The notes beneath the pieces were generated by a model. The model was not told where the DNA came from. It worked only from the letters and a program-made list of their open reading frames with translations, and ran no database searches. Positions 5,179-60,240 of a stretch of DNA of 64,000 nucleotides are shown here, piece by piece. Origin of the DNA: a virus; IMG/VR virus record IMGVR_UViG_3300042330_000854, positions 32,001 to 96,000 of that record; one strand, written 5' to 3'. The translations under genes were made by a program, and so were the position numbers. Positions within the stretch are counted from its first letter, which is position 1. The number at the start of each line of letters is the position of its first letter.

Positions 5179-5544
5179 ATGTATTATTATAAATTAAACG
5201 ATGAAATAAAAAGTTGTAAAAAATATTCTGAAATACCATTTGAACAATTAATTGTTGAAAATGAATCAACTCATTGGAAAGTAACTGCGGATGATGGTAC
5301 TTTTTATTATAATAAAAATAAAATTCATAGAAAAAATTTACCAGCAAGAATAGATGATTTATTTGTTTGTTATTATGAAAATAACCAACCACATAAAGAA
5401 GATGGTCCTGCATTAATTTTTAATAACGGTTATTATTCTTTTTGGTTATATGGAAAAAACTATCTTAATGTAAAAGATTGGTTGACCTATCATCCAAATC
5501 AAGATAAAGTATTTGAAGTTGAAATGTTATTGCGTTATAGTTAA
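5179..5544 (+). CDS. HRLTGPA-family protein (divergent, B-type tail)
   Basis: HRKNLPA, HKEDGPA, ends HPNQDKVFEVEMLLRYS. Confidence 0.8.
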   Translation: MYYYKLNDEIKSCKKYSEIPFEQLIVENESTHWKVTADDGTFYYNKNKIHRKNLPARIDDLFVCYYENNQPHKEDGPALIFNNGYYSFWLYGKNYLNVKDWLTYHPNQDKVFEVEMLLRYS

Positions 5545-5566
5545 AATTCATAGAAAGGAATTAAAA

Positions 5567-6070
5567 ATGTCATCAGATGAAATTAAAACAGTATTATTAA
5601 GTTATGCTCGTGCATTTAAAGATCATACTGAAAAGCAAATTAAACGAATTTCTAAGAAGAAAGTTGATCAAAATGTAATTCGTATTTTTAAATCAACTAT
5701 TACTGATGAAAAATGGCTAGTTATTTCATATGATGGCGACGATGAAGATTATTCTATGTTTCCTTTTGCTGAAACCGCAAACGAGTGGACAGCATATGTT
5801 CAACATTCACAAGACAATATTGATTCAGACGAAGAAGCTGTAGTAATTATGTTTGCACCTAATTGGTGGAAAGTAAAAGAAAGATATTTTTATGATCAAC
5901 ATTTAGAATTTGTTTTTGGTGATATTTTAAAAGCATTTATTCAAGATGAATATGAAGAAATACAAGAAAATACTTTTATATCCAATATTGGGAATTTAGA
6001 AGAAACTATTGCTGATTTAAAAAATCGCGGATTTAATGTTGAAATGTTTGATGAAAATACATTGCCTTAA
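5567..6070 (+). CDS. Acidic hypothetical protein
   Basis: ORF; start moved to the ATG after AAAGGA. Confidence 0.7.
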   Translation: MSSDEIKTVLLSYARAFKDHTEKQIKRISKKKVDQNVIRIFKSTITDEKWLVISYDGDDEDYSMFPFAETANEWTAYVQHSQDNIDSDEEAVVIMFAPNWWKVKERYFYDQHLEFVFGDILKAFIQDEYEEIQENTFISNIGNLEETIADLKNRGFNVEMFDENTLP

Positions 6071-6102
6071 AAATTTTCAAAATAAAAAAAGGATAATTAA
6101 TA

Positions 6103-6327
6103 ATGAATATTAAAGAAATGGTATCAGATAATAAAAAAGTTACATTTGAATATTTTCGTGATAATGAATTATGGTATAAAACAGAAAACGATTTCTTATT
6201 TCCTGTTCCAACTGATGATGTTGGTAATGCTGTTTTTATGAAAGAAGATAAAGCTTTATTGTTTATGCGATGGATTCGTAAACATATTCAAAAATTAGAA
6301 GATGCAAGAAAAAATCAAAATTTATGA
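6103..6327 (+). CDS. Small conserved-type phage protein
   Basis: LWYKTE..FLFPVP..D.GNA.F..EDKA..FMRWIRK pattern. Confidence 0.7.
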   Translation: MNIKEMVSDNKKVTFEYFRDNELWYKTENDFLFPVPTDDVGNAVFMKEDKALLFMRWIRKHIQKLEDARKNQNL

Positions 6328-7001
6328 TTAATTTATCATTAAATTCTTTTTCTAATATTGATATAGATCAATTATTAAAATTAATTAAAAATTATGCAGT
6401 TGATAATTTAGAGTTATCAACTGCACTTTCTTTAAAACATATTGATGGGTTTGAAAGATTTGCTTCTGTTGATTTTATTAATTTGTTTAATAAAAAATTA
6501 AAAGAAAATAATATAAAAACCTCAATACACGTATTTGGTGAATTAGCTAAACAATTAGGAAACGACAGAATAAATAATATTCCAAAAATCAATTGGGAGC
6601 TATTAGAACGAGTACAATTGAATAGATTTTCAGTTGATATTAATATTGCTTTAGAAAATCTTGAAAATTTAGGCTTTAATGGGCGGTTGATTTTACCAGC
6701 CAATAAAAAAGATTTGGTTATATCTGAATTGCCAATTGACGATAGAATTGATTGGTTATATGATTGTTCTCATGGTAAAGGAATTGAAATAAACTCATAT
6801 CCAATTGATCCTTTGATTAATCGACAAGGTAAAATTGGATTTGCTGGTGGAATTAATAAAAATAATATTTTAAAAATAAATAATAAAATTTTAACATTAG
6901 GTTTTAAAAATTATTATTTGGATATTGAAAGTGGCATACGTGAAAATGATCGAATATCATTTGAAAAAATAAAAAATATATTAGAAATAATAAACAAATA
7001 A
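6324..7001 (+). CDS. TrpF-like (phosphoribosylanthranilate isomerase-like) TIM-barrel protein
   Basis: VQLN, LYDCSHGKG, GFAGGI, LDIESGIR motifs. Confidence 0.7.
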   Translation: MINLSLNSFSNIDIDQLLKLIKNYAVDNLELSTALSLKHIDGFERFASVDFINLFNKKLKENNIKTSIHVFGELAKQLGNDRINNIPKINWELLERVQLNRFSVDINIALENLENLGFNGRLILPANKKDLVISELPIDDRIDWLYDCSHGKGIEINSYPIDPLINRQGKIGFAGGINKNNILKINNKILTLGFKNYYLDIESGIRENDRISFEKIKNILEIINK

Positions 7002-7055
7002 TTGTTGACATAAATTTTTATTATGTTATCCTTTTTTAAACAAAGGAGAAAAAAT

Positions 7056-7460
7056 ATGCTAGAAAATGTTTATTTAGAATTTAATGATAATTTTAGCGGT
7101 TATCATGAACCTGATTATAAGAAAAATAATGAATTATTAACTAAATTAGAAAATTATAAGTTAATTAATAATTTTAATTTATTTTCTAATTTAGTTAATT
7201 TACTTCCAAATTGTATTATATTTGTTTGGTCTGAAACACCTTCTGATGATTTTGATTTATTTGATGTACAATTTGACGAAGATGAATGGGAAACTTATGA
7301 AGATTATTTATTGGCGTGTAGCAACAATAAATATGCTTCTATTTTGTTTTATGTTAACCCAAATTGTTTTATGACATTTTGTGGCAGTAATGCTGATATT
7401 GCTTTCTCATTACTATTAAAACAATTGAAAAAAATTAATGAAATTAGATTTATTGACTAA
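7056..7460 (+). CDS. Hypothetical protein
   Basis: AGGAG RBS, upstream TTGACA promoter. Confidence 0.7.
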   Translation: MLENVYLEFNDNFSGYHEPDYKKNNELLTKLENYKLINNFNLFSNLVNLLPNCIIFVWSETPSDDFDLFDVQFDEDEWETYEDYLLACSNNKYASILFYVNPNCFMTFCGSNADIAFSLLLKQLKKINEIRFID

Positions 7461-7500
7461 TTAATTGTTGACATGATTAAGAAATTTTGGTATAAATAAT

Positions 7501-7606
7501 TTAAGTTAATTAGAAGTGGGCTTCCGTAGCGACGGCTATAGATTTTTGTTCGATTCAAAATTAAATCATGGATGATTAACGTGGTTCGATTCCACAATTA
7601 ACTTAA
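7501..7606 (+). ncRNA. tRNA-like RNA with two T-arms
   Basis: 11-bp terminal stem; TTTTG-TTCGATT-CAAAA and GTGG-TTCGATT-CCAC; promoter TTGACA-17-TATAAA at 7468. Confidence 0.7.
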
Positions 7607-7701
7607 TTTGGTCCTGTAGTTTACTCTTATCAGGACTACTTTGTTAAATAAAATGTTATGATTTGTCACATATTTTTAATATGCAAAAAGACAAATCCTT
7701 T

Positions 7702-7773
7702 GGGCCTAAAGTGTTGTTGGGGGCATAACAGATTTGCATTCTGTAGGGCGGGTTTCGAATACCCGTGGGTCCA
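7702..7773 (+). tRNA. tRNA-Ala(TGC)
   Basis: G3:U70, ACAGA-TTTGCAT-TCTGT, TTCGAAT T-loop. Confidence 0.9.
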
Positions 7774-7847
7774 CTATCGTAATATGGCGAGGGTTACAAT
7801 AAAATCGTTGACAAACGTTATCATTTATAGTAAAAAAGAATAAGGAC

Positions 7848-7988
7848 TGCCCATCGTTCTCCTAGCAATAGGTTTGGTAAATACCGAATAAAATTATGAT
7901 CTTAGTGGCGTTAGATTAGTAGCAATAATTAAAATAGAAGAGAGGCATGTATGGTGAGCTATTGGAAGAGATAGACTAGGTGATGGCA
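7848..7988 (+). ncRNA. Structured ncRNA, family B copy 2
   Basis: CCTA-GCAA-TAGG, GAATAA-AATTAT-[27 nt]-ATAATT-AAAA; outer CCATC/GATGG; promoter at 7808. Confidence 0.65.
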
Positions 7989-8041
7989 TTACCAAATAAT
8001 TATGCTAAAAGTTTTGATAGTTTCTTTAAAAAACTATCTAT

Positions 8042-8114
8042 GGTAGTTGTGGCAGAAAAGTTATGCGACAGATTGTGAGTCTGTAATAAGCGAGAGCGTT
8101 ACTCGTCAACTACC
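8042..8114 (+). tRNA. tRNA-His(GTG)
   Basis: G-1:C73, ACAGA-TTGTGAG-TCTGT, T-loop AGCGTTA. Confidence 0.9.
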
Positions 8115-8137
8115 CGAAATTTATTGGGGATTTATCA

Positions 8138-8422
8138 ATGCTAATTTGGTCTAATGAAAGCCGTGAACTTTTTAAAAATGTTGTAATTGAAAATAATATT
8201 GGTACTTTATCTTTACCAAGCGAAAACCCATTCAATATTGAATGGTCTAACCAATGTAAAATATTAGATAATAATCAAAGTACACCAGCTAATGAATATA
8301 AACAATATAATTTACAATTAAATAATGGTAAAATAGCTACTGGTGTTTTTATAAAACAAATTGAATTTTTTGGTGATAAAGATAAGAAAATTTTTACATT
8401 TGTAATTGATACTATTTCTTAA
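8138..8422 (+). CDS. Hypothetical protein
   Basis: ORF with GGGGA RBS. Confidence 0.65.
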   Translation: MLIWSNESRELFKNVVIENNIGTLSLPSENPFNIEWSNQCKILDNNQSTPANEYKQYNLQLNNGKIATGVFIKQIEFFGDKDKKIFTFVIDTIS

Positions 8423-8449
8423 TAAAAATATATTATAGAAAGAAAAACA

Positions 8450-8608
8450 ATGTTTCCATTATTTTTATTACTATTAAATTTTATATTGTTTAGTGGAATA
8501 ATTTATATGATGATTAAAATAGGTTTTTGGTTGTCTGTTTTTTGTATTTTACTTAGTTCTATAGTATGGATACCAGTTATTGTACTTCTTTACATGCATC
8601 GCAAATAA
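8450..8608 (+). CDS. Small membrane protein (not in ORF track)
   Basis: MFPLFLLLLNFILFSG..., hydrophobic 52 aa. Confidence 0.5.
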   Translation: MFPLFLLLLNFILFSGIIYMMIKIGFWLSVFCILLSSIVWIPVIVLLYMHRK

Positions 8609-8613
8609 TCTAA

Positions 8614-8853
8614 ATGTTAAGTGATATTAAATTTTCACATCAATTAGAACAAAGTTTACATTTTATTGTTGAAAATTTAGAAGATAAATCTTCAAATAAT
8701 ATTATGATAAATTTTAATATTTTCTTTAAATTGTTAATTAATTGTAAAGATGTAAAAAATGTGTATTTGAATTTTATTGATAATATTTTTGTTATAAATT
8801 ATACATATAATAAACAAAATTTTTGTATTAACTTTTTCTATAAAACAACTTAA
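8614..8853 (+). CDS. Hypothetical protein
   Basis: ORF in + strand run. Confidence 0.55.
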   Translation: MLSDIKFSHQLEQSLHFIVENLEDKSSNNIMINFNIFFKLLINCKDVKNVYLNFIDNIFVINYTYNKQNFCINFFYKTT

Positions 8854-8865
8854 AAAGGAAATAAA

Positions 8866-9600
8866 ATGAGTTTAGCTTTATTTGATACAGAGGGGTTGCG
8901 TTTTCGACGCCAAACTGAATTACGATTACGTGAACAAATTAAAAATGAATTAGTAGAAAATATTCAACAAATTTTATTAGATATGAATCAAATGTGGCGT
9001 TTTGAAGAAGTTGAAACGCCATTAATTATGCCTAAAGAATTAATGAATGCAAGTTATGATCTTGATGATATTTTTGTTTTACAAAATAAAATAGCCAATA
9101 AAGATTATGCTTTACGTGCAGAAACAACATTAGGTTCTTATTTAATGGCTGTTGAATTACTTAAAACAACTTCAATTCGTGCTCCTTTGTGTGTTTATAC
9201 ACATGGGCCAAGTTTTCGAGTTGAAAATTCAGATGGGGCAACTGCTGCTAAATTACGGTTTAATCAATTTTATCAATTGGAATTTCAATTAATTTATGGT
9301 GCTGATACCAAAGCGCCGATTATTGAAACAATGATTGAAAAATTACCTACGGTAGTAAATAAAATTCTTAATAAATCTGTTAGAACAATTGAAAGTGATC
9401 GTTTGCCTTCTTATTCGATAGAAACAATTGATATTGAAGTTGAATGGTATTCTGAAACAGCAAAAAAGATGGAATTTAAAGAAATTGCCAGTATGAGTTT
9501 ACGCAAAGATTTTCCTTTAATTCCAGGCCATAAACCGTATCGTGTTTTTGAAATTGCTTTTGGAACTGATCGATTATTGGCTATGAAAAATGGCATTTGA
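8866..9600 (+). CDS. Stand-alone class II aminoacyl-tRNA synthetase catalytic core (alpha2 GlyRS-like), no anticodon-binding domain
   Basis: Motif 1 EVETP, LRAETT, motif 2 SFRVE..LRFNQFYQLEFQ, motif 3 EIAFGTDRLL; 244 aa. Confidence 0.85.
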   Translation: MSLALFDTEGLRFRRQTELRLREQIKNELVENIQQILLDMNQMWRFEEVETPLIMPKELMNASYDLDDIFVLQNKIANKDYALRAETTLGSYLMAVELLKTTSIRAPLCVYTHGPSFRVENSDGATAAKLRFNQFYQLEFQLIYGADTKAPIIETMIEKLPTVVNKILNKSVRTIESDRLPSYSIETIDIEVEWYSETAKKMEFKEIASMSLRKDFPLIPGHKPYRVFEIAFGTDRLLAMKNGI

Positions 9601-9880
9601 TTTACATGAATTGAATCAATTAAAATTTGATTTAAAAAATCTAAATGTAAATATTAAAATATGTTCTCCTGATAATAAATTGGGAGAACATTTTATTGAT
9701 TTTTATATTGATGATAAAAGAATTTTAACTATTGTTTATAAATTAAAATTTGGTTTCGGATTTTTTAGTGAAGATGCAATAATGTTTGAAGGCCCAAGTG
9801 AAATTTTAAATTATGAAAATGCATTAATAAAAATTCGAGAATTTTTAGCTGATAAAAATTTGTTAAATAAATCTACATAG
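9590..9880 (+). CDS. Hypothetical protein
   Basis: Overlaps the aaRS stop. Confidence 0.65.
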   Translation: MAFDLHELNQLKFDLKNLNVNIKICSPDNKLGEHFIDFYIDDKRILTIVYKLKFGFGFFSEDAIMFEGPSEILNYENALIKIREFLADKNLLNKST

Positions 9881-9889
9881 TTTCAGAGT

Positions 9890-10325
9890 TAGAAAAAGGG
9901 AATCGCTCTTCCCAAAAACATTTTCAGAATACAGGACTGAGGAAATGAGTTAGAAACAAACGAACGGTTACGATTAACCGGAATAGAAAAAATTCTATTC
10001 ACTAATCCGTCTATCGAGTAGAATTGGTAGGCGAAAAGATTCTAGCAATGTTTGTTCATTAACAACTAGAAGTTATCATAATTTTAATACATGAGAATTA
10101 TGATAATCCCGTTTTGAGAAATTTAAAATCAATTTCTGAAGATTTATCACGAGTAGGTACAGCAAAACCGCCTGCGCTTTATTTTATAATGTAGTGAGTC
10201 ATGTATGAAATTTACGCCGATGCTTTTATACGTAAGGTGCAAAATTTGATCTTCCCTATGTCATTATTATTTTATTAGTTTTGGCATGGGGAAGAATGAA
10301 ATATGTCCTCAGCAATTGCCGTATG
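9890..10325 (+). ncRNA. About 430-nt structured RNA candidate
   Basis: ORF-free, relatively GC-rich, about 10 hairpins, long-range CTGAGGA (9937)/TCCTCAG (10306). Confidence 0.6.
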
Positions 10326-10472
10326 GGCTTTAGAAATAAAGAAAAAAATCAAGTAAAAAACAAAAAAAATAAAATTTTTCTTCTAATAAGATTTATAGCA
10401 GAAATTCTTTTTTTATTGAAAATTTTTTTACATGATATTATATTAACTTTTTAATGAAAGAAAAAATAAAAA

Positions 10473-10676
10473 ATGACAAAACCTTATACTTGTGAAATCA
10501 CTCAACAAACTTTTGAAAATGTTGAAGCCGCTAATTTTTATTTTACTCAACAAAATAAAATGGTTTCTATTCTTCCAGTTGGTTCAATAGTAACTATGGA
10601 ATTTAGACCTAATCGAGTTAGAATTTATCATGATTTAGAAGATAAAAATATCATCATAGATATTACTTTTGGTTAA
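10473..10676 (+). CDS. Serine protease inhibitor, potato inhibitor I (I13)/I78 fold
   Basis: ILPVGSIVTMEFRPNRVRIY vs barley CI-2 [20 protein letters not shown]; C-terminal G. Confidence 0.8.
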   Translation: MTKPYTCEITQQTFENVEAANFYFTQQNKMVSILPVGSIVTMEFRPNRVRIYHDLEDKNIIIDITFG

Positions 10677-10731
10677 AATTAATTGATAAAAACATGTTGA
10701 CAAGCTAATAAAAACATAGTAAGTTATATAC

Positions 10732-10831
10732 ATAAGCATGGGATATGAAAAGAAGGTTCGAGTCCTTCGCCGCAACGTTGACAACAACGGGGTGGATGTT
10801 GTTCGCCGGAAAGAAGCTTTTCTGTGCTTAT
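10732..10831 (+). ncRNA. Circularly permuted tRNA mimic (YrlA-like order T, acceptor-like, D)
   Basis: Terminal stem ATAAGCAT/GTGCTTAT, T-arm GAAGG-TTCGAGT-CCTTC first, capped stem, then TTC-GCCGGAAA-GAA; promoter at 10697. Confidence 0.6.
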
Positions 10832-10833
10832 AT

Positions 10834-10906
10834 CACGCATTCGAATAATCAGTTAATTCAACAGACTTTCAATCTGTAAACGAGAGGGCAGAACTCTCAT
10901 GCGTGA
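10834..10906 (+). tRNA. tRNA-Glu(TTC)
   Basis: CACGCAT/ATGCGTG, ACAGA-CTTTCAA-TCTGT, T-loop GGCAGAA. Confidence 0.88.
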
Positions 10907-10930
10907 CTTTTTAAAATATAGGAATAAAAT

Positions 10931-11107
10931 ATGGAAAATGTATTAATTCTTCTGTTATTACCAATTATTGTAATATTAATTGGGTTAATTTTATTTGTTT
11001 ATATTTACTTACCATTATCTATTCCATTTTTACTACCAAGTTTAACTGTAATTATAATTTCTATTCTAATTTTTATTGTTATACATTATATTGGAAAAAT
11101 AATTTAA
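10931..11107 (+). CDS. Small membrane protein (not in ORF track)
   Basis: AGGA RBS, hydrophobic MENVLILLLLPIIVILIG... Confidence 0.5.
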   Translation: MENVLILLLLPIIVILIGLILFVYIYLPLSIPFLLPSLTVIIISILIFIVIHYIGKII

Positions 11108-11191
11108 AAATTAAATAAAATGCTTTAATTAATGTAGTTGTGATAGATAAATAATGTACAAATTTATGCCGATTTAATAAGAGAAAATAAT

Positions 11192-11341
11192 ATGAATAAT
11201 AATTTTAATTTAGAACATGTTGGAAGTTCTTTTGAAGATTGGCTTGAATACGAAGGATTTGCTGAAGAAGTTTATGCAAGTGCTTTAAAAGAATTACAAT
11301 TTGAACAAATTGAAAAAACATTAAAGAAATTACAAAAATAA
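11192..11341 (+). CDS. 49-aa peptide resembling the N-terminus of XRE/HigA-type antitoxins (not in ORF track)
   Basis: HVGSSFEDWLEYEGFAEEVYASALK matches the HIGSSFDDFLxEEG..EEV..AIK pattern; no HTH follows. Confidence 0.65.
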   Translation: MNNNFNLEHVGSSFEDWLEYEGFAEEVYASALKELQFEQIEKTLKKLQK

Positions 11342-11355
11342 TTAGAAAGTTTTTT

Positions 11356-11892
11356 ATGATATTTAAAATAGAAAAAAATGTTAATTTAAATAATAGTTTT
11401 ATTCCAAGAAAATACGAAGAACTATATAAAATTGTAGATGGTATGAAAATAGGAGATAATATAAAGTTATCTTCTACAATGTTTAATAAAAATAATTTGA
11501 GAAAATATCAAATTACAATTCAAAATTGTCTTAAAAATAAATATCCAGAAAAAAAGTTTATAACTTCTATTATCAACGACGATATTTATTTATGGTATGC
11601 TAATAAAGAAAACACCAACGACATTAAAAAATTAATTCATCAGGTTAAAAAACAAATTTATTTAAATAAAAAAAATTCTAATTGGTTTATTGTTAATGAT
11701 ATTTTAATAGAAAAAGATATACTTATTGATGATATTGAACATAAAATATTACAAATCGGCGATAGTTTTATGGTTGACACTGAATTAAAAAGACAATGTT
11801 GTCTTGATAAGTTAAGACGTATGTACCCATCATATAAATTTAAAAGTAAAAAAATAACAATTAATGAGTATAGAATTTGGAGAATATCATGA
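11356..11892 (+). CDS. Hypothetical protein, two copies of a KIEKN..IGD(S)..R(I/V)WR domain
   Basis: Internal repeat shared with the next ORF. Confidence 0.7.
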   Translation: MIFKIEKNVNLNNSFIPRKYEELYKIVDGMKIGDNIKLSSTMFNKNNLRKYQITIQNCLKNKYPEKKFITSIINDDIYLWYANKENTNDIKKLIHQVKKQIYLNKKNSNWFIVNDILIEKDILIDDIEHKILQIGDSFMVDTELKRQCCLDKLRRMYPSYKFKSKKITINEYRIWRIS

Positions 11893-12179
11893 AAATTGAT
11901 AAAAATATTCCATTACTAAATAACAATCAAAATACACCTAGTAAATATATTTTACCAGAAATGGAAATCGGTGATAGTATTTTGTTTACTGTTCCAGAAA
12001 ATGAAAGGTTTAATGCGTTTAAACAAAGAACTATTGCTGGATTAAAACATCATAATCCAGACTATGTTTTGTCTTTAAGAAATGAAGGTAAAAATAGTTT
12101 CAGAGTTTGGCGCGTAGCAGAAAAACCTAAAAATGTATTTGTTGTTATTAATAAAGAAATGATAGAAAAAATTAATTAA
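11889..12179 (+). CDS. Hypothetical protein, one KIDKNIP..MEIGDS..FRVWR domain (putative DNA-binding)
   Basis: Motif similarity to the preceding ORF; ATGA overlap. Confidence 0.7.
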   Translation: MKIDKNIPLLNNNQNTPSKYILPEMEIGDSILFTVPENERFNAFKQRTIAGLKHHNPDYVLSLRNEGKNSFRVWRVAEKPKNVFVVINKEMIEKIN

Positions 12180-12329
12180 ATGTTTGAAACAAAAATGCGA
12201 TTATAAAGATTTATACTGAATTAAATCATTATTTATAATTCCCATTGTTTCACTTATTTTATGCTATATTCAGACATTATTTAGTTTAAGGTTGTAAGAT
12301 AATGGGTATATAAGTCAGCAACCTTTTTA

Positions 12330-12401
12330 CGCGGGATAGTGAAGTGGTTATCACACAGGATTCATGCTCCTGTATCCTAGGTTCAAATCCTAGTTCCGCT
12401 A
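12330..12401 (+). tRNA. tRNA-Met(CAT), possibly initiator-like
   Basis: C1/U72 mismatch, CAGGA-TTCATGC-TCCTG, TTCAAAT T-loop. Confidence 0.9.
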
Positions 12402-12503
12402 CAATTAAATTTTATAATACCATAAGTCTGTTTAAGTGATTATGACGATTAACAAATAGTTAATTCATCTATGTACAAAATCCTTTTCAGCAGGTTATTT
12501 TAA

Positions 12504-12553
12504 AGAATGATTTCCGCAAAATTTAGCTTGGATATGCAAAAAACATCATTCTG
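12504..12553 (+). ncRNA. Family A ncRNA, copy 5
   Basis: Differs from 2632-2681 at two positions. Confidence 0.8.
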
Positions 12554-12583
12554 TTTTAAACATTTTATATGAAGGAAAAAATA

Positions 12584-12778
12584 ATGCACAAATATACAAA
12601 TTTAATTATTAAAAAAACATACGACGAAACAACAAATACTTATACTGAAGTACCATTTACTGTCGTTGAAGATCAAAACGATGTTTGGACTTTACTAAAT
12701 TATTTTGCTAGAGATAATAATGATCCAAAAATTACATTTATAATTAAACCTATTACTGTTTCTGATGTTCCAAAATAA
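12584..12778 (+). CDS. Hypothetical protein
   Basis: GAAGGA RBS. Confidence 0.65.
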   Translation: MHKYTNLIIKKTYDETTNTYTEVPFTVVEDQNDVWTLLNYFARDNNDPKITFIIKPITVSDVPK

Positions 12779-12779
12779 T

Positions 12780-13013
12780 TTAATCTTTTAAATCAGGATT
12801 CATTATTAACATGATTTTATTAGCTATTTCTAATGAAATAGCATCTTTTTCTTTTTGTTTAATTTGTTGAAACGCTTGAATTTCCCATTTCATTAACCCT
12901 AAATTATCAAAATTATCATAAGAATTTATATTTTCTAAAATTTCTTTTATTTTGAAATTAGTTTGTGATTTTTTAAGTAAAATTTTATATTGATTGTTTT
13001 CTGTGTATCTCAT
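12780..13013 (-). CDS. Hypothetical protein
   Basis: Fills the gap between + genes. Confidence 0.45.
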   Translation of the reverse strand: MRYTENNQYKILLKKSQTNFKIKEILENINSYDNFDNLGLMKWEIQAFQQIKQKEKDAISLEIANKIMLIMNPDLKD

Positions 13014-13034
13014 CGATTATTTAAAGGTTATAAA

Positions 13035-13352
13035 ATGAATTTATTAAAAAATTCTAAATTTAAAAAATTAATTAATAATTCTAATATTTATTGGATTGAT
13101 TTGCCGATTATTGATGGGAATTTAGATTATACATACTCAGTTTTAAACTCAGAAGATTTTCTAAAAAAATTTGAAAATGGTTATTATAAATATACCTATT
13201 TTACAAATGATGGTAGAGATTATAATGAAATACAAACCGATTTACCATCACTTAGAACTAAATTACAACAATTTTTTATTGATGATAATTATCATTTAAT
13301 TTATGTTGAATTAAACAATACTGATTATTTATTATATATATTAGGAAAATAA
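13035..13352 (+). CDS. Hypothetical protein
   Basis: ORF, start adjusted. Confidence 0.65.
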   Translation: MNLLKNSKFKKLINNSNIYWIDLPIIDGNLDYTYSVLNSEDFLKKFENGYYKYTYFTNDGRDYNEIQTDLPSLRTKLQQFFIDDNYHLIYVELNNTDYLLYILGK

Positions 13353-13353
13353 A

Positions 13354-13734
13354 ATGAACTTTGAAGATTTTAAAAAATTAGTTAAAGAAATTAAAAATGA
13401 TGATGAAGATTATTTTTATATTGAAAAAAATATATTTGATAAAGATGCTAATTTTTATTCATTTGATGATTGCTTAACTTATGAAGGCAATTATATGGGC
13501 GATAGTTGGGATTATCCAGACAGTTCAAAATACCCAACAGAAATTAAAAAAATTGATTTATTTTTAGAAAAATATGTTCAAAATATTTCTTTTATTCAAT
13601 ATAAAAAACTAACAAACAAATATCGACATATTAGTCATGAAACTCGTGATATTTATTCTAATACAGTTTATAAGATAACATATATTTCAATAAAAGAATT
13701 TTATGATTTTCTTCTTGAAAATAAATTAATTTAG
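13354..13734 (+). CDS. Hypothetical protein
   Basis: ORF with AGGA RBS. Confidence 0.7.
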   Translation: MNFEDFKKLVKEIKNDDEDYFYIEKNIFDKDANFYSFDDCLTYEGNYMGDSWDYPDSSKYPTEIKKIDLFLEKYVQNISFIQYKKLTNKYRHISHETRDIYSNTVYKITYISIKEFYDFLLENKLI

Positions 13735-13925
13735 GTTGCTAAGATTATAATTGTTTAGTATATTATAATCTTAATAAAGGAGATATTAAATGAAAATTTA
13801 TTTTGATGTAAAATATAATGATAATGTAATTGCCACAAAAGATAAATTTATTTTTCTGCATGAAAAATTAAAGCATAAAATTCTTTATTCCAAAGAATCT
13901 ATTTTGCGTTTAGTTGAGAAAACCA

Positions 13926-14312
13926 ATGAATAAATTATCAATAAAAGAATTAGAATTTTTATATAATATTTTAAATATTGAATATCATAATATGGTTAAT
14001 CAAAACAAAGATGATTTTGATGATAGATTTTATAATATTTGTATGGAAAAAATTTTACAATATCATGACAATAATAAAACATGTTTGAAATTATTAAAAG
14101 AAAAACATCAACAAATCAATTATTTTAATTCCAATATTAGAGTTATAAATCATAATTTTAACTTTAATAATTTTAATTCAATTGATGAAAATGAACTAAA
14201 TTACATCGTTATTTTAGAGCATAAAATATTAATTGTTGATTTACTATTGATTAATCCAGGATGTTATGATAAAATGAACATGAACCAAATTGTTGATATT
14301 TTACAAAATTGA
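13926..14312 (+). CDS. Hypothetical protein
   Basis: ORF. Confidence 0.6.
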   Translation: MNKLSIKELEFLYNILNIEYHNMVNQNKDDFDDRFYNICMEKILQYHDNNKTCLKLLKEKHQQINYFNSNIRVINHNFNFNNFNSIDENELNYIVILEHKILIVDLLLINPGCYDKMNMNQIVDILQN

Positions 14313-14665: not shown

Positions 14666-14675
14666 AATATTAAAT

Positions 14676-15640: not shown

Positions 15641-15644
15641 CTTT

Positions 15645-15731: not shown

Positions 15732-15738
15732 CAATTAG

Positions 15739-53418: not shown

Positions 53419-53811
53419 ATGCGATTTAACGATAAACTTCAAAGAAAATTTTATCAATTAGAACGAGAAAAGCGTTTGGTGGAACAAAATTATCAATGCT
53501 TTTATTGTAAAGAAATTATCACTAAAAATGAAGTAACTGCCGATCATGTAATTCCAATTAAACAAACAAAACGACATAGCGATTGTAATATTGTTGCTAG
53601 TTGCATAAATTGTAATAGAAAAAAAGCAGCAATGACAATTGACGAATTTAAAAATTATAATTTTAAAAAAGTTCCTAATGAACTAAAAGAATTTTTTGAA
53701 ATTTTAGAAACAAGAACGCGCAAAGCAGAATTTAATCTTGATATTAAAACTCACTTTACAAGTTTTCGCCATTGGCAAACTTATTGGCAAAAAAGGAATA
53801 AATGGAAATGA
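53419..53811 (+). CDS. HNH endonuclease
   Basis: CFYC..DHVIP..N.VASCINCN. Confidence 0.88.
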   Translation: MRFNDKLQRKFYQLEREKRLVEQNYQCFYCKEIITKNEVTADHVIPIKQTKRHSDCNIVASCINCNRKKAAMTIDEFKNYNFKKVPNELKEFFEILETRTRKAEFNLDIKTHFTSFRHWQTYWQKRNKWK

Positions 53812-54143
53812 GTAAAGTTTTTTATATTGATGGAATGAAAGTACCAGATGATGAATTTCCAGTTACTCCTTGGGAACTTATTTCTTCACCCGACGAAAAC
53901 ACACCTGCTTTTGAAAATTTAGAAACAGGTTTTAAATCTTGGTGCTTAAAACATTATGTCTTGCATCGATTAACTGGACCAGCAAGAATTTTACCAAATG
54001 GGGCTTGTCAATTTTATCTTAATGGTAAAAATTATGAAACCGTAAAAGAATGGATTGTGGATCATCCAAATCCCGATTTATATTTTCATAAAATTGGTGT
54101 TTTTACAGAAACCGATAAAATTTTGTGGTTTTTACAAAATTAG
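53808..54143 (+). CDS. HRLTGPA-family protein, A-type tail
   Basis: Family motifs. Confidence 0.9.
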   Translation: MSKVFYIDGMKVPDDEFPVTPWELISSPDENTPAFENLETGFKSWCLKHYVLHRLTGPARILPNGACQFYLNGKNYETVKEWIVDHPNPDLYFHKIGVFTETDKILWFLQN

Positions 54144-54260
54144 TTTTAAAGCGATTTAAAGCCTATTAATCTAATTAGCTACCCAACTACCTAAATCAAT
54201 TTAAAACTGCTGTAACATGCCTCTAAATGCAATTAAACACCTATTTGAAAGAAAATATAA

Positions 54261-54590
54261 ATGATCATTTATTATATCGATGGCAAAAAATATATAGCTA
54301 AAAAATATCAAAATATTCCTATATATAAAATTTCTTCACCTGATGAAAATATACCTGCTTATGAAAATTTAGATTCAGGTTTTAAATATTGGTGTAAAAA
54401 AGGAGATATTTTTCATCGATTAACTGGGCCATCAACAATTTTGGCTGATGGAACAAATTATTTTTATCTTAATAATAAAAGATATATGAATATTCGAGAA
54501 TGGATTAATAACCATCCAAATCCAGATTTATACTTCGATGCAATTGGATTGAATGAAACCGATAAAGTTTTATGGTTTTTACAAAATTAA
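54261..54590 (+). CDS. HRLTGPA-family protein, A-type tail
   Basis: Family motifs. Confidence 0.9.
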   Translation: MIIYYIDGKKYIAKKYQNIPIYKISSPDENIPAYENLDSGFKYWCKKGDIFHRLTGPSTILADGTNYFYLNNKRYMNIREWINNHPNPDLYFDAIGLNETDKVLWFLQN

Positions 54591-54613: not shown

Positions 54614-54928
54614 ATGACAATTATTTATTATATTGATGGTGAAAAATTTATTGTTGATGATTGGTTTAAAATTGAAAACATGCTATTTGATTTTTCTTCA
54701 CCAAATGAAGAAACGCCCGCTTGGGAAAACTTAGAAACTGGTAAAAAAGTATGGTGCTTAAAAGGATATCGTTATCATCGCTTAACAGGACCAGCAATTT
54801 ATTGGGCATCTGGTGATTATTCTTTTGGGCTATATGGTATTTTTTATGATGATATTTATGATTGGTTAAAAATACATCCAAATCAAGATAACTCTTTTCA
54901 AATTGAAATGTTGTTAAAATACACATAA
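54614..54928 (+). CDS. HRLTGPA-family protein, B-type tail
   Basis: Family motifs. Confidence 0.9.
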   Translation: MTIIYYIDGEKFIVDDWFKIENMLFDFSSPNEETPAWENLETGKKVWCLKGYRYHRLTGPAIYWASGDYSFGLYGIFYDDIYDWLKIHPNQDNSFQIEMLLKYT

Positions 54929-55036
54929 TTTGATTATATGAATAAATTTTCTATTCATGGAGAGCCGCAGAAAACAAAGAAATATTGAGAGTGTTCGTAC
55001 AACTGCAACTTAACAAAAATTAAATTTAAAAATTAC

Positions 55037-55109
55037 TTGACAAAGATCAGAAAATTTTTAATATTGGGTTCACGTCTAAATTAATGGGAGCTTATAATCT
55101 CCCATTTTT
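55037..55109 (+). promoter_or_regulatory. Stereotyped promoter followed directly by a terminator (empty cassette)
   Basis: TTGACA-AAGATCAGAAAATTTT-TAATAT, then ATGGGAG/CTCCCAT-TTTT. Confidence 0.6.
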
Positions 55110-55124: not shown

Positions 55125-58100
55125 ATGTCAAATAGTTTAAAACAATCAGAATTATACGCGGCACAAGATTGGCGCACACTTTATCAAGCATTTACAAATA
55201 TTAATTTTAATGCAACTGATCCAGTTAGTATAAATCAAAGTTTACGTGAGTATGCACAAAAAGCTTATCCAGAAGATTTTAATGATTGGAATGAAGCTTC
55301 TAGCTTTGTTGCTCATATAGATTTATTAAGTTGGTTAGCTGGTACAGTTGCTTTTCGTCAAGATGTTGCCGCAAGAGAAAATTTTCTTGAAACTGCGGAA
55401 TCAAGAGAAAGTATTTTAAAATTAGCTAGATTTTTAAGTTATGTGCCAAGTAGAAATATTCCTTTACGTGGATTAGCTAAAATAGTTCAAATTCAATCAG
55501 ATGATGATTTAATTGATTCAAGTGGTAATAATTTAAACAATCAAATTGTATTATGGAATGATCCTGATAATTTAGATTGGTATGAACAATTTACTTTAAT
55601 TATGAATTCGGCTTTTATTCAAACTAACCCGTTTGGTGTTCCATTAGAAACAGCAAATATTGGTAATATTAAAACACAAAATTATCGCGTTAATACACCA
55701 AATACTGCATTGCCTTTATATGGTTTTCAATGTCAAGTTAATTCAAGAAATTTACCTTTTGAATTAACTACAGTTGATATTTCAGCATCAAATGGATTTA
55801 CAGAATTATTCCCAAGCAATAATAATAGTTTTCAATTAACTTATAGAAATGATGGTCAAGGTTTTGCCAGTAACAATACTGGTTTTTTTGCATATTGGAC
55901 TCAAGGTACTTTACAAAATCAAGTATTTAATATTGATAATCCAAGAGAAAATACTATTATAGATGTTAATGTTCCTAATATTAATAATAATGATATTTGG
56001 GTTGAAACAATTGATGAAAATGGAAATAGTTTAATCACTTGGACTAAAGTTCCCGGCTTGTTTACAGATAATGTTGTTTTTAATGCGGTTCCGCCAGCTA
56101 ATAGAAATATTTTTCAAGTTATTACAAGAGATAATGATCAAATTTCATTAAAATTTTCTGATGGTTTATTTGGAAATATCCCAACAGGCAGAATTAGAGT
56201 TTGGTATCGTGTTTCAAATGGTGATAATCAAATTTTATATCCAAAAGATATGACAAGAACAACTGTAACAATTCCTTATGTTAATTCTGCTGGATTATTA
56301 AAAAGATTATTTGTTTATTTTTCATTAACTTCATCAGTTGCAAATTCTGCACCTTCTGAAACTACAGAACAAATTCGTCGCAGAGCCAATCAAACATATT
56401 TGGCACAAGGAAGAATGGTTACTGGTGAAGATTATAATTTATTTCCATTGCAAACAAATTTAGCAACAAAAATAAAATCGGTTAATAGAACTTATAGTGG
56501 ACACAGTACATACTTGGATTTAAATGATCCAACTGGAAATCATAATACAGTAAACATTTTAGGTTCAGATGGTATTTTAGCTTATGAAATGGTTGAAGAA
56601 TATAACGAATATTTTGATATTGGTAGCGTTGATATTGATTTAGTTATTGCTAATACATTAAATCAAATGTTAATTAAATCAACTGTAAAAACTTATATGC
56701 TAAATGAAATGAAAAAATTAAATATTATTCCAAGTACGCCGCTATATTGGAAAAATGTTATTGTTGATAATGATTCATCATCTGGTGTTTTTTCAGATAC
56801 AAGAAATTCTCAATATTTTCCTTTTTCTGTTGGCGTAGGTGTTGGTTTAGGTCAACAATTTATTTCATCAGGCAGTTATTTAATATTTGATGATAAAGTT
56901 TGTTATGTTAATAATTTATCAGGAAATGGAACAAATCAAGAACAAGGTGGAATTGTTGTACTTCCTGCCATTGAAAATAATCGTGAATTAACACAAATTA
57001 TTCCTGCTTGGAGAAATTCATTTAATGCTTTAGAATATTCAACATTAGTTTCTTTATTAACTAATCGTGCAAATACTGAAATTTTTTGGGATTATTTAAG
57101 TCAAAATTATATTATAAGAGAAATTGTATTAAATCAACAAAATCCAATGAATAGTATTTTAATTGGTACTGTAAAATACATAGGTAATAGTTGGTGTTTT
57201 ACCTTGTTTGGTTTAAGAATGTTTTTTGAAAGTGTGCAAGAAACACGTTGGTATTTTGAAAATGAAAATTTAGGATTAGACCCAAATACAGGTGAATTAA
57301 AAAGAGATACTATAACTTTATTACCTCAAAATTTAATAAAAATTGTAGGTGAAAATTGGCAACAAAATAAATCTTATCAAAAAAATGATATTGTTTATTA
57401 TAATAATCAAACTTTTGAATGCTTGACCAATCATGTTTCTGGTAATATCTTTGTTGAACAATTAACTGATATTGATAGTTTAAAAGTAAATCCACAACCA
57501 TTTGATGTAACTGTAACCAATATTGATGTTCCAGATATTTTCATTCCAAATAATACAAATATCGGCTATTTTGTAAGATTTTTAGAATTTACTGCAACAT
57601 CATTAGAAGATGATAATGATATTTCTATTAATACAGTTGAAATAGAATTTAATATTCCAATATTAACTACAACTCAAACATTAGTTTTAAATCCAATTGT
57701 TCAAATTTTAGACGGCATTAATACAACAATTACTGCTAGAATTAATATTGATAACTTATCAGTTACTATTTCAATTGATGATATTGCTGTAACTGATATT
57801 TCAGGAACCGTTAATTTTTCATTTCCAACATTAACTTTTAATCGAGATGATTTAACAGAAACTAATTTACAAAATAATCCTCTTAAAATATCAAATAATA
57901 GTGGAGAAGTTTATTATAAAAATACCCAAGAATTAACAGTTCCGCCATTTTCTATAATTAAAAATGTTGATTTGGGTGTTATTGAAATTGATCCAAGTAG
58001 TGAATTATCAATTACTACTTTATGGAAACCAATTGTTTATCAAAATAATAAAGAAAGTAATTTAGTTATTGAACGATTATATGAATATTTGGATGGATAT

Positions 58101-59135
58101 TCTGAACCAAGAAGAATTATTGTTAATTCAACAGATGAAAATAATGATGGGCAGTTAGATGAACCTTTTGTTTATTTGAAATATTTGGCTGAAAATAACG
58201 AAAATTTTAATTTATTATTTTGGGAAAAATACACAGATCAAAACGATTATGTTTATCGTAAACCTTTGATTGACGTTTGGGTGTTTGATTTATTATCGAG
58301 CAAAGACGATTATAATAGTATTTTAACTGGCGTTGCTCCAAGTGTTAATACTATTGCTTATGTTATTGAAAATAAAACTTTTTGGAAATTTAATGTAGAT
58401 AATGAATGGGAACAAATATCATCCGATAATTATTTTGTTGGTCAAGGTTATGGTTTGAATAACCCAAAATATTTTATTACTGAAAATAATTTTTATAGTA
58501 TCGATCCAAAAGGATTATATTATAGATGGAAACGATATGCTCCATTTGAAAATAGAATTGATCCTTCGGTTAGTAATATAATTGATATTTTCGTATTATC
58601 AAATGAATATGATCAATTATATCGTAATTGGATCGGTTCTGGTGCTGACATTAATTCTCGCCCTATTCCACCAACTGCTACAGATTTAAAAATAGCTTTT
58701 TCTTCTTTTGAACAATTTAAAATGTTTTCTGATGAAATTGTTTGGCGACCTGTTATGTTTAAAGATATTTTTGGTGATAGTTCTTTGCCTGAATATCAAG
58801 GTAAATTTGTTGTGGTAAAAAATCCAACTTCACAATTAAGTGATGGTGAAATTAAATCAAGAATTTTAAATGCAATTGCTGAATTTTTTGATGCAAGTCG
58901 TTGGGATTTTGGCGAAACTTTTTATTTTCAAACAATGAGTGCTTATGTAATGTTAAGTTTAGCTACACACATTGATAGCTTTACCGTTGTGCCAATGATG
59001 CAAAATAGTGCTTATGGTAATTTATTTGAAATGAAATGTAATTCAGATGAATTGTTTATTAGTACAGCACAACCAAAAGATATACAGTTTGTTAAATCAA
59101 ATACTGCTGATATATTACGTGTTGGTAAAATATAA
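55125..59135 (+). CDS. Baseplate wedge subunit (T4 gp6-like) with internal carbohydrate-binding-like module
   Basis: PEDFND, ENFLETA..RESIL.LAR.LSY.P, FSDGLFG.IP, Q.RMVT.EDY, WDFGE; WQQNKSY..DIVYY..F.C..H. Confidence 0.92.
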   Translation: MSNSLKQSELYAAQDWRTLYQAFTNINFNATDPVSINQSLREYAQKAYPEDFNDWNEASSFVAHIDLLSWLAGTVAFRQDVAARENFLETAESRESILKLARFLSYVPSRNIPLRGLAKIVQIQSDDDLIDSSGNNLNNQIVLWNDPDNLDWYEQFTLIMNSAFIQTNPFGVPLETANIGNIKTQNYRVNTPNTALPLYGFQCQVNSRNLPFELTTVDISASNGFTELFPSNNNSFQLTYRNDGQGFASNNTGFFAYWTQGTLQNQVFNIDNPRENTIIDVNVPNINNNDIWVETIDENGNSLITWTKVPGLFTDNVVFNAVPPANRNIFQVITRDNDQISLKFSDGLFGNIPTGRIRVWYRVSNGDNQILYPKDMTRTTVTIPYVNSAGLLKRLFVYFSLTSSVANSAPSETTEQIRRRANQTYLAQGRMVTGEDYNLFPLQTNLATKIKSVNRTYSGHSTYLDLNDPTGNHNTVNILGSDGILAYEMVEEYNEYFDIGSVDIDLVIANTLNQMLIKSTVKTYMLNEMKKLNIIPSTPLYWKNVIVDNDSSSGVFSDTRNSQYFPFSVGVGVGLGQQFISSGSYLIFDDKVCYVNNLSGNGTNQEQGGIVVLPAIENNRELTQIIPAWRNSFNALEYSTLVSLLTNRANTEIFWDYLSQNYIIREIVLNQQNPMNSILIGTVKYIGNSWCFTLFGLRMFFESVQETRWYFENENLGLDPNTGELKRDTITLLPQNLIKIVGENWQQNKSYQKNDIVYYNNQTFECLTNHVSGNIFVEQLTDIDSLKVNPQPFDVTVTNIDVPDIFIPNNTNIGYFVRFLEFTATSLEDDNDISINTVEIEFNIPILTTTQTLVLNPIVQILDGINTTITARINIDNLSVTISIDDIAVTDISGTVNFSFPTLTFNRDDLTETNLQNNPLKISNNSGEVYYKNTQELTVPPFSIIKNVDLGVIEIDPSSELSITTLWKPIVYQNNKESNLVIERLYEYLDGYSEPRRIIVNSTDENNDGQLDEPFVYLKYLAENNENFNLLFWEKYTDQNDYVYRKPLIDVWVFDLLSSKDDYNSILTGVAPSVNTIAYVIENKTFWKFNVDNEWEQISSDNYFVGQGYGLNNPKYFITENNFYSIDPKGLYYRWKRYAPFENRIDPSVSNIIDIFVLSNEYDQLYRNWIGSGADINSRPIPPTATDLKIAFSSFEQFKMFSDEIVWRPVMFKDIFGDSSLPEYQGKFVVVKNPTSQLSDGEIKSRILNAIAEFFDASRWDFGETFYFQTMSAYVMLSLATHIDSFTVVPMMQNSAYGNLFEMKCNSDELFISTAQPKDIQFVKSNTADILRVGKI

Positions 59136-59159
59136 AGGGGAGCTAAATAGCTCCCCTTT
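59134..59159. terminator. Bidirectional intrinsic terminator
   Basis: AAAGGGGAGCTA/TAGCTCCCCTTT. Confidence 0.85.
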
Positions 59160-59454
59160 ATTTTGAAATTTTAATTGTTTTAAAATATCTATATTCATCT
59201 AAATCACCTTCAATACTTTCATGTTGTTCAACTTTCCAACCATTGTTTTTCAGGTAATCAATAACAAGATCAATTAACTCTTGATCATCATCAAAAATAT
59301 CACCAAAAGTATCACCTTTAGAATTTCGTTCAACAAAATTAATAAGATGATAATAAAGTTGTGGTAAAATAATATTGAATTTATCATAAATCGTCATTGT
59401 AAATTCTCGATTTACAATGCTTTTAATATTTTCTCGTGATAAGTCATAATGCAT
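59158..59454 (-). CDS. Hypothetical protein
   Basis: AAGGA RBS. Confidence 0.7.
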   Translation of the reverse strand: MHYDLSRENIKSIVNREFTMTIYDKFNIILPQLYYHLINFVERNSKGDTFGDIFDDDQELIDLVIDYLKNNGWKVEQHESIEGDLDEYRYFKTIKISK

Positions 59455-59472
59455 TTTTGTTTCCTTCTTTTA

Positions 59473-59838
59473 TTAATTTAACATATCATTATAACCAAAT
59501 AAATTAGTCATTTTTGATTTAAAAGATTCACTTTTATTTGGGTGATCTTTAAGCCAATCTTGTAAATTATTATAATAACATTTATCATTTAAATAAAATT
59601 CATATGTTGCATTATAGCGAATAGCTGCTGGTCCAGTTAAGCGATGAAATTTATTTCCTTTTAAACACCAAATTTTTTCACCTGTTTTTAAATTTTCAAA
59701 AGCAGGTGTATTTTCATTTGGTGATGAAATTTTATACCAAGGAATTACCAAATAATTATCGCTTGAAAATTTCTTACCATCGATATAGTAAATATATCGA
59801 TTATTTTTTTTAAATAAATTAAAAATGTATTTTAACAT
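59473..59838 (-). CDS. HRLTGPA-family protein, B-like tail
   Basis: Family motifs. Confidence 0.88.
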   Translation of the reverse strand: MLKYIFNLFKKNNRYIYYIDGKKFSSDNYLVIPWYKISSPNENTPAFENLKTGEKIWCLKGNKFHRLTGPAAIRYNATYEFYLNDKCYYNNLQDWLKDHPNKSESFKSKMTNLFGYNDMLN

Positions 59839-59865
59839 AATATTTTATCCTTCTTGTATTATTTT

Positions 59866-59894
59866 ATAATAGAAAATTTTTTATAATTTGTCAA
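59866..59894 (-). promoter_or_regulatory. Stereotyped strong promoter
   Basis: TTGACA-AATTATAAAAAATTTTC-TATTAT. Confidence 0.8.
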
Positions 59895-59898
59895 CTAA

Positions 59899-60240
59899 TT
59901 AATTTTGTAAAAACCATAAAACTCGTTCTGTTTCTGTTAAATTGATTACATCAAAATAAAGATCGGGATTTGGATGATTATTAAGCCAATCCTGAATATT
60001 TTTATATGGTTTTCCATTTAAATAAAATTCTCCAAAACCATCACCCCAAATTCTTGCTGGGCCGCTTAATCGATGCAAATACGAATGTTTATTGCGCCAT
60101 TCTTTATATCCAGTTTCTAAATCTTCTAAAGCAGGTGTATTATCATCAGGCGAGGAAATTTTAATATAAGTTCTGAGGTTATAAAGTATATTAGTTTTAT
60201 TTTGAATACCGTTTTCATAATATACATAAATATATTTCAT
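59899..60240 (-). CDS. HRLTGPA-family protein, A-type tail
   Basis: Family motifs. Confidence 0.88.
   Translation of the reverse strand: MKYIYVYYENGIQNKTNILYNLRTYIKISSPDDNTPALEDLETGYKEWRNKHSYLHRLSGPARIWGDGFGEFYLNGKPYKNIQDWLNNHPNPDLYFDVINLTETERVLWFLQN

Follow-up and report, generated by a model that had tools for sequence, protein, structure and literature searches.

An old family of small hairpin-repeat proteins with two alternative tails, shuffled by recombination, in an uncultured T4-like jumbo phage

The family and its place in the phage genome

This report concerns a family of small proteins of about 105 residues that is encoded many times over in a 64,000-nucleotide (nt) stretch of viral DNA. 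This stretch, which we call the window, represents bases 32,001–96,000 of the linear viral contig IMGVR_UViG_3300042330_000854 (108,076 bp, by estimate ~33% of the genome), and the phage from which it derives is an uncultured AT-rich T4-like jumbo myovirus with a G+C content of ~26%, whose nearest isolate, as judged by the 959-residue tail sheath, is the Agrobacterium phage Atu_ph07 (49% identity). A first-pass annotation, made from the sequence of the window without database searches, had listed 19 positions as dispersed copies of one family with a fixed scaffold, hypervariable patches and two interchangeable C-terminal tails, and all 19 indeed carry members, remnants or divergent relatives of a single family. 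With a profile built from 17 members, we obtained 30 matches in the 108-kb contig, 26 of them full length. The full copies have E-values from 1e-33 to 1e-50, which excludes chance similarity, their reading frames are intact in all 26 cases, and tails A and B are represented by 13 copies each. Family sequences account for 7.8% of the contig. The members in the window, together with two conserved non-coding elements, X and Y, that lie among them, are given here in window coordinates.

5179–5544, plus strand: divergent member with a B tail and an extra HRKNLPA repeat unit (110.8 bits in the profile search)
17619–18239, plus strand (open reading frame start 17538/17619): distant relative (30.7 bits, E 5.8e-9) with an acidic N-terminal region, one RNDGPA unit and then a B-like tail (HENQDENFKKEMLEKY)
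19004–19339, plus strand: A-tail member; early-type promoter at 19343–19371, 3 nt past the TAA stop codon
25652–25981, plus strand: A-tail member, source of the first AlphaFold model; promoter at 25996–26024
26051–26147, plus strand: tail-only remnant (…DFLKDNPNKNRIFKIIMRLKY) of a decayed copy, just behind a promoter
26145–26771, plus strand: two-unit fusion gene in which a complete B-tail unit follows a degenerate one (HRENGPA, NIPNQNKKFQKEMIEKF)
28548–28853, minus strand: B-tail member; ATGA overlap with the upstream gene
30284–30592, minus strand: B-tail member, source of the second AlphaFold model; ATGA overlap upstream
33310–33627, minus strand: A-tail member whose start adjoins the rIIA stop codon; promoter at 33267–33295
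35751–36068, minus strand: B2-tail member with HRENGPA and the tail FQKEMLERWG; a terminator-like hairpin comes next
38232–38540, minus strand: B-tail member; ATGA overlap with the upstream gene
40925–41254, minus strand: A-tail member; promoter at 40893–40921
48781–49116, minus strand: A-tail member; ATGA overlap upstream, promoter at 48749–48777
51103–51402, minus strand: B-tail member
53802–54143, plus strand (start given as 53808 in the first-pass annotation): A-tail member that opens an A-X-A-B-Y cassette
54144–54260, plus strand: conserved non-coding element X, between two family genes
54261–54590, plus strand: A-tail member, the clearest mosaic
54614–54928, plus strand: B-tail member, final gene of the A-X-A-B-Y cassette
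54929–55065, plus strand: conserved non-coding element Y, leading into an early-type promoter at 55037–55065
59473–59838, minus strand: member whose B-like tail is aberrant and longer (HPNKSESFKSKMTNLFGYNDMLN); the A-tail gene at 59899 lies upstream of it
59899–60240, minus strand: A-tail member; promoter at 59866–59894

That these genes are wedged into operons of other genes, as had been proposed, is apparent from five copies that share an ATGA overlap with the gene ahead of them and from a further four that are separated from it by −1 to +1 nt, and one copy does start directly behind the stop codon of rIIA.

The family extends beyond this phage. A related contig of 146 kb has 37 full copies, and the related contigs, which come from three metagenomes, gave 43, 25, 23 and 10 matches in 146, 96, 57 and 40 kb, respectively. 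The 146-kb relative and the 108-kb contig have almost no non-family genes in common. The copy density is ~1 per 4 kb; if it holds across the genome, a total of roughly 80–100 copies would be expected. In public metagenomes we found ~386 clusters at 90% identity, every one of them named hypothetical. A tblastn search with one member against 50,697 phage records gave no family match in isolate phages—Atu_ph07 has about five weak matches to the generic form of the repeat described below, without any expansion—and scans of members with the Pfam, PHROG, NCBIfam and PADLOC models matched none of them. We conclude that this is an undescribed protein family that represents a lineage-specific expansion. 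Some copies in the related contigs are frameshifted or contain stop codons (stop-broken or frame-split copies lie at G003 20661–20987, G003 4578–4887 and G001 99296–99605), and one related contig has a natural two-unit fusion of 223 residues in B→A order (L010:8070–8738, plus strand), which together suggests that the family also undergoes fusion and decay.

Protein architecture and relation to known repeats

All members are built around the motif H-R-x-x-G-P-A, followed about six residues on by a glycine and then by W/F-x-L-N-G. H53, G57 and P58 are invariant, and R54, L55, A59, L71 and N72 are nearly so. The body of the family is two hairpin units of a widespread viral repeat, HRxDGPA, the generic form of which is a 23-residue tandem repeat, W-x-x-N-G-x-x-H-R-E-D-G-P-A-x-E-x-x-x-G-x-x-x. 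Unit 1 is degenerate (SSPDENTPA…WC.KG, with DENTPA as its core) and unit 2 is canonical (HRLTGPA…F.LNG), and an N-terminal hairpin, YYIDGEKF, precedes both. When the profile was searched against 1.8 billion representative proteins, 14,189 matches were obtained at E ≤ 1e-3 and 70 at E ≤ 1e-30, the best E-values, down to 1e-87, being those against HRxDGPA repeat proteins. Most of the matches are long proteins in which 5–27 stretches align to profile positions ~30–77. Among the Pfam models, these long repeat proteins reach DUF6745 alone, with no stretch individually significant, and in a scan of eight family members neither DUF6745 nor the Pfam MORN models gave a match at E ≤ 1. The first-pass description of one diversified family, in which the scaffold is fixed, other positions vary and the tail comes in two alternative forms, is thus borne out; the scaffold itself is present as described but is not unique to the family, as it equals two units of a widespread repeat.

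HRxDGPA repeat proteins occur in phages and giant viruses and are in part covered by DUF6745. They share with the family the H-R-x-x-G-P-A motif, the following glycine and W/F-x-L-N-G, and one short example ends in a B-like tail as the family does. The family differs from them in having two units only, in its additional YYIDGEKF hairpin, SSPDENTPA segment and HPN-helix tails, and in a far higher copy number per genome. The divergent copy at 5179 appears to stand between the generic repeat proteins and the family. A second comparison is with MORN repeats (PF02493/PF07661), which have the same 23-residue period and the same architecture of stacked hairpins. The MORN core, G-K-R-H-G-x-G, is resembled by G-K-x-H-(R-x-D)-G-x-A in the family. 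In contrast to MORN proteins, the family has C-terminal helices that lack any MORN counterpart, a Pfam match to MORN is absent, and the structural matches to MORN proteins are weak.

AlphaFold models were obtained for one member of each tail type. The A-type model (25652) has a predicted local distance difference test score (pLDDT) of 94.1 and a predicted template modelling score (pTM) of 0.82, with the body hairpins at residues 3–75 and helices at 78–84, 89–95 and 99–108, and the B-type model (30284; pLDDT 97.0, pTM 0.86) has the same body, with helices at 79–85 and 91–101. In both, HPN forms a turn after the first helix, from which tail B continues as one helix and tail A as two. Each protein is therefore predicted to be a stack of beta-hairpins that is capped by a short helix, with the HPN turn and the tail helix or helices behind it.

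This predicted fold has no evident counterpart among solved structures. A Foldseek search of the Protein Data Bank (PDB) gave nothing at E ≤ 0.001 (best E 3.6), VIA-align of both models against 48,161 chains gave best Z-scores of 3.9 and 3.3, in the range of noise, and no PDB sequence matched a generic repeat protein, so the repeat is absent from solved structures. Of the weak structural matches in the PDB, SET7/9 has a Z of 2.4 and ciliary proteins have a Z of ~3. The predicted viral structures that come closest belong to uncultured phages (small proteins), to Atu_ph07 (five hypothetical proteins) and to a giant virus (a MORN protein), the last being a weak match to a Harvfovirus MORN protein in BFVD (E 0.017, probability 0.91). 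A relation to WD40 proteins came up in a PDB profile search and was rejected, as the score was the sum of 13 stretches of ~2–5 bits each. Full-text searches of about 8.4 million papers found none that mentions the HRxDGPA motif or DUF6745.

Age of the copies and nature of the variable positions

The copies have diverged widely: the nucleotide identity of their bodies has a median of 67% and reaches 81% in the closest pair. The median proportion of synonymous differences (pS) is 0.47, which is at the plateau, and synonymous sites are thus near saturation. We also determined how often two copies that share a residue encode it by the identical codon, and compared this fraction with the expectation from the codon usage of the family itself. 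It was 0.70 observed versus 0.63 expected for the N-terminal segment before HRLTGPA, 0.69 versus 0.64 for tail A, and 0.71 versus 0.72 for tail B. The conserved leucine and proline of tail A are each encoded by at least three synonymous codons. The near-saturation of synonymous sites, together with the conservation of the motifs, means that the copies are old and that scaffold and tails are under purifying selection—the ratio of nonsynonymous to synonymous rates (omega) is ~0.3 on conserved columns—and the age of the copies excludes recent gene conversion. The first-pass annotation had envisaged a diversifying system that is spreading; with synonymous sites near saturation, neither process can be current or rapid.

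These data also dispose of the idea that the frames are a by-product of repeated DNA and do not represent genes at all. The sole observation in line with it is that all database relatives are named hypothetical protein. Conservation acts at the amino-acid level while synonymous codons vary, the frames of the full copies are intact without exception, genes are coupled to their neighbours by ATGA, and the structure predictions are very confident. This explanation is effectively excluded.

Along the predicted strands, positions of high and low entropy alternate, for example in A59-[x]-I61-[xxx]-G65-[xxx]-F69-[x]-L71, a sequence pattern that would be expected if one face of the sheet were exposed. 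The patches of variable residues are rich in aromatic residues, as had been proposed: tryptophan, tyrosine and phenylalanine make up 22.6% of the most variable columns versus 10.8% in the other proteins of the phage, and relative to these proteins the variable columns are enriched in tryptophan (3.8-fold), tyrosine (2.4-fold), histidine (2.1-fold) and arginine (2.0-fold). Such a composition is typical of protein-binding surfaces and may point to one here, although by itself it is no proof.

Variable patches in a conserved scaffold bear a superficial likeness to the products of a diversity-generating retroelement (DGR), and we therefore considered whether a DGR or a similar system of targeted hypermutation had made them; a DGR had been named as something to check. 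The absence of a reverse transcriptase, already noted for the window, holds for the whole 108-kb contig, about 33% of the genome, in which PF00078 is not found. There is also no near-identical pair of template and variable repeats, as the identity values given above for the bodies illustrate, and synonymous sites vary freely throughout, including in the conserved motifs. Furthermore, the predicted fold is neither a C-type lectin nor an immunoglobulin fold. The saturated synonymous sites, the lack of a reverse transcriptase in the contig and the missing template/variable pair together lead us to reject the DGR, which is effectively excluded as well.

Exchange between bodies and tails

The two tails are as first described. 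Mean amino-acid identity is 77% among A tails and 73% among B tails, compared with 51% for the body. For phylogenetic analyses, we pooled the full copies of the 108-kb and 146-kb contigs, which gave 62 copies, 31 of each type; the body tree has 59 rows, since three aberrant copies were excluded. On this tree the tail subtype changes 30 times, and shuffled labels give an average of 30.0 changes. The tree has sister pairs of one A-tail and one B-tail copy with supports of 100/98 and 98/84, and the tree of the 108-kb contig alone has one with 95/92. The nucleotide distance in the N-terminal segment is 0.336, the same within and between tail types, and any linkage to tail type is confined to the last ~10 codons ahead of HPN. 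Tail type is thus statistically independent of body sequence. Since the divergent relatives with N-terminal extensions all have B-like tails, tail A appears to be the derived form.

Individual mosaics were detected directly. Over its first ~195 nt, the A-tail gene 54261 shares 91% identity with a B-tail gene of the related contig, and the identity then falls to ~60%. In a 3SEQ-type triplet test, the corrected p of this mosaic is 1.7e-9 when the whole gene is considered and 4e-4 when the body alone is. The same test identified a second event, which involves the copy at contig position 101594, with a corrected p of 7e-3. Sequence exchange between paralogues is therefore real. The first-pass annotation had placed the switch point at the HPN shared by both tails. 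Recombination as such stands, since the mosaics are significant, but a preference for HPN is unsupported: the best-supported breakpoints lie in the body, the clearest of them after HRLTGPSxIxxDG.

Promoters, non-coding elements and shared cassettes

It had been noticed that six A-type genes end close to one and the same promoter, and we can confirm that six such genes in the window end 6–17 nt ahead of it. This sigma-70-like promoter of early type is very uniform and consists of TTGACA-N8-AAAATTTTCTATAAT, followed by a conserved block, TTTATCAA. Its strict form occurs 47 times in the two contigs taken together (254 kb), with 23 sites in the 108-kb contig, with ~17 sites in the window (examples are 19343–19371, 36665–36693 and 48749–48777). 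The strict promoter lies within 25 nt of the last sense codon, equivalent to within 22 nt of the stop codon, in 12 of 31 A genes and in none of 28 B genes (Fisher p 1.5e-4). Behind eight A genes the junction is fixed as TAA, 3 nt and TTGACA, and this suggests joint duplication of gene and promoter as a single unit. T4-type late promoters (TATAAATA) were not found within 80 nt upstream of any copy.

Two non-coding elements accompany the genes. Element X, found between two family genes, has ~120 nt and a C content that is relatively high for this genome. There are eight copies in the two contigs with 77–85% nucleotide identity, seven of them near full length at 82–85% and one partial; besides the copy listed above, they lie at contig positions 29486–29600 and 101473–101597 and, in the related contig, in L039–L043 (four near full length and the partial one). 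Element Y has ~105 nt and nine copies with 82–97% identity (window 54929–55036, contig 29928–30027 and 101903–102009, and six in the related contig). Six of the nine follow directly behind a called B-tail gene, and four of these six have a strict early promoter ~110 nt past the gene end; all three copies of the 108-kb contig and one of the related contig run into the early-type promoter. Y begins with a −10-like AAATTTTCTATTCAT and contains a conserved pair, GCCGCAG…CTGCAAC; a small RNA or a leader may be encoded by it. Both elements are better conserved (~82–97%) than the family genes (~67%). RNAalifold gave weak structures for X and Y, and a scan of the window with Rfam matched tRNAs alone and neither element.

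Genes and elements form recurring cassettes. The order A-X-B-Y is found at no fewer than five loci, several of which continue with an early promoter, and of 13 adjacent family pairs seven are A→B, three A→A, three B→B and none B→A. The family is a clear example of coding modules, the two tails, being shuffled jointly with regulatory ones, namely the promoter, X and Y.

In T4-type phages, promoter-early stem-loop (PeSL) cassettes are known to mediate shuffling (PMC2839356, PMC4122927). The likeness to our phage consists in dispersed, conserved early promoters that border accessory genes in a T4-like genome and are possible recombination points, and in a truncated family copy behind one such promoter. 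The difference is that the repeated unit includes the coding 3′ end of the gene, and that there is no terminator stem-loop at the junction: the 3–17 nt between stop codon and −35 box of A genes leave no room for a hairpin, so the arrangement is not a PeSL as defined. This precedent nevertheless raises the question of whether the family genes are passengers, that is, whether their 3′ ends, the early promoter and X and Y constitute a dispersed homology that drives duplication while the proteins contribute little. The fixed junction behind eight A genes would agree with this, and so would the 12–13 of 47 strict promoters that adjoin an A gene, the higher conservation of X and Y relative to coding sequence, the tail-only remnant just behind a promoter, the pseudogenes and split copies in related contigs, and the documented PeSL-mediated shuffling. 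We consider it unlikely, as scaffold and tail residues have been kept while synonymous codons were randomised, which means long-term purifying selection on the protein and not on the DNA alone. Most copies, namely the B-type and operon-internal ones, do not adjoin a promoter, and the missing stem-loop terminator at the junction of A gene and promoter sets the arrangement apart from PeSL.

The arrangement of the genes also bears on the idea that A and B forms act together in heterodimers or mixed assemblies, formed via sheet edges or tails, for instance as a scaffold or a regulator in two parts, with copy number providing dosage or diversity of assemblies and not a multitude of targets. A and B occur in equal numbers, both in the 108-kb contig (13 each) and in the pooled set (31 each), the neighbours are A→B in seven of 13 pairs and never B→A, natural two-unit fusions exist, and MORN-type repeats are known to self-associate. 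Against this, equal counts would be no great surprise under chance (probabilities of 0.15 and 0.13 in the two contigs, respectively), the majority of A and B genes are not neighbours, and the single fusion examined, from a related contig, is in the order B→A. Such co-assembly therefore appears improbable to us.

A possible repertoire of binding modules

The descriptive part of our interpretation is well supported: the family is an old, selectively maintained and shuffled expansion of a hairpin-repeat protein. It has grown by duplication of genes and of multi-part cassettes, such as gene plus promoter or A-X-B-Y-promoter, and homologous recombination between copies has reshuffled the members and thereby unlinked tail from body. 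Each copy is kept by purifying selection on scaffold and tail, with the alternating strand positions free to vary. Expression would fall into the early or middle phase of infection, and the variable face of the sheet would recognise differing partners, with the tail providing one of two common outputs. For this whole explanation, an old and maintained expansion that was shuffled by recombination and acts as a protein-binding repertoire, we estimate a probability of roughly 55%.

The functional part is the less certain one. That the proteins are a repertoire of binding modules for host takeover has about even odds in our view, the two grounds being the analogy to expansions in eukaryotic viruses and the composition of the variable surface, and a role against host defence, which the first-pass annotation had raised, is speculation. 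Large expansions of a single protein type are well known in giant viruses and poxviruses, with their expanded ankyrin, BTB, F-box and MORN families, and are rarely documented in phages. The phage family resembles these expansions in that one viral genome encodes numerous paralogues of a small protein with repeat- or adaptor-like character. It differs in that the copies are dispersed on both strands and inside core operons and do not form one array, and in that two alternative C-terminal modules exist that are unlinked from the body. As for phages, Bacillus phage G has a zinc-ribbon family of ~35 copies that was called 'unprecedented' (PMC7824862), and arrays of more than 30 similar genes were reviewed for some jumbo phages (PMC13282480). 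The kind of phenomenon is thus already known, and what is new here is the dispersed family and its two-tail modular structure that is linked to regulatory elements.

Several observations weigh against our interpretation. Omega reaches ~1.2 on the 30% most variable columns, but this is no evidence of positive selection, as these columns were picked for their variability, which makes the calculation circular, and as dS is saturated. Alternating variability is common to exposed strands of any beta-sheet protein and thus does not prove a binding face, that the variable residues share one face was judged from the sequence pattern, and the aromatic enrichment may derive in part from semi-conserved aromatic residues of the repeat. 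With respect to recombination, the pairwise homoplasy index (PHI) test gave no signal (p 0.39 and 0.996), although it probably has no power at this divergence, and a single origin of the A tail within the 108-kb contig was compatible with an approximately unbiased (AU) test (p 0.098); in view of these outcomes, the unlinking of tail and body could partly reflect lost phylogenetic signal. Finally, for many copies the nearest strict early promoter is several kb away, which makes the timing of expression uncertain.

The continued presence of 26–37 intact, ancient copies per 108–146 kb, all under purifying selection, implies that each copy presumably does something different. This makes the family a candidate set of binders for host takeover or counter-defence, and its confidently predicted fold of ~100 residues, which has no solved relative, might serve as a binder scaffold. 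The family also provides a first handle on the HRxDGPA repeat, which is found in more than 14,000 protein clusters of the databases. A more elaborate version of the repertoire would be a combinatorial library of two-module adaptors, in which dozens of faces rich in tryptophan, tyrosine and arginine, carried by a minimal scaffold of MORN-like hairpins, are recombined with two helical output tails. We regard this version as rather unlikely; if it were true, many host proteins could be routed to two common fates during takeover, and the family would be a phage counterpart of the substrate-adaptor families of eukaryotic viruses and a natural scaffold for small binders.

Neighbouring features of the window

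Other features of the window that are referred to above or that lie beside family genes are the following.

931–16030, plus strand: eight tRNA genes within the first 16 kb (Rfam, gathering score)
33628–35670, minus strand: rIIA, 680 residues (PHROG 612, E 3e-79)
55125–59135, plus strand: baseplate wedge protein, 1336 residues, with a carbohydrate-binding module of family 5/12 at residues 744–772

For rIIA, there was no close relative in the viral collection searched. The family member 33310, directly behind it, occupies the slot in which T4-like phages usually place rIIB. The 5′ side of the baseplate wedge gene carries an early-type promoter and then a terminator-like hairpin.

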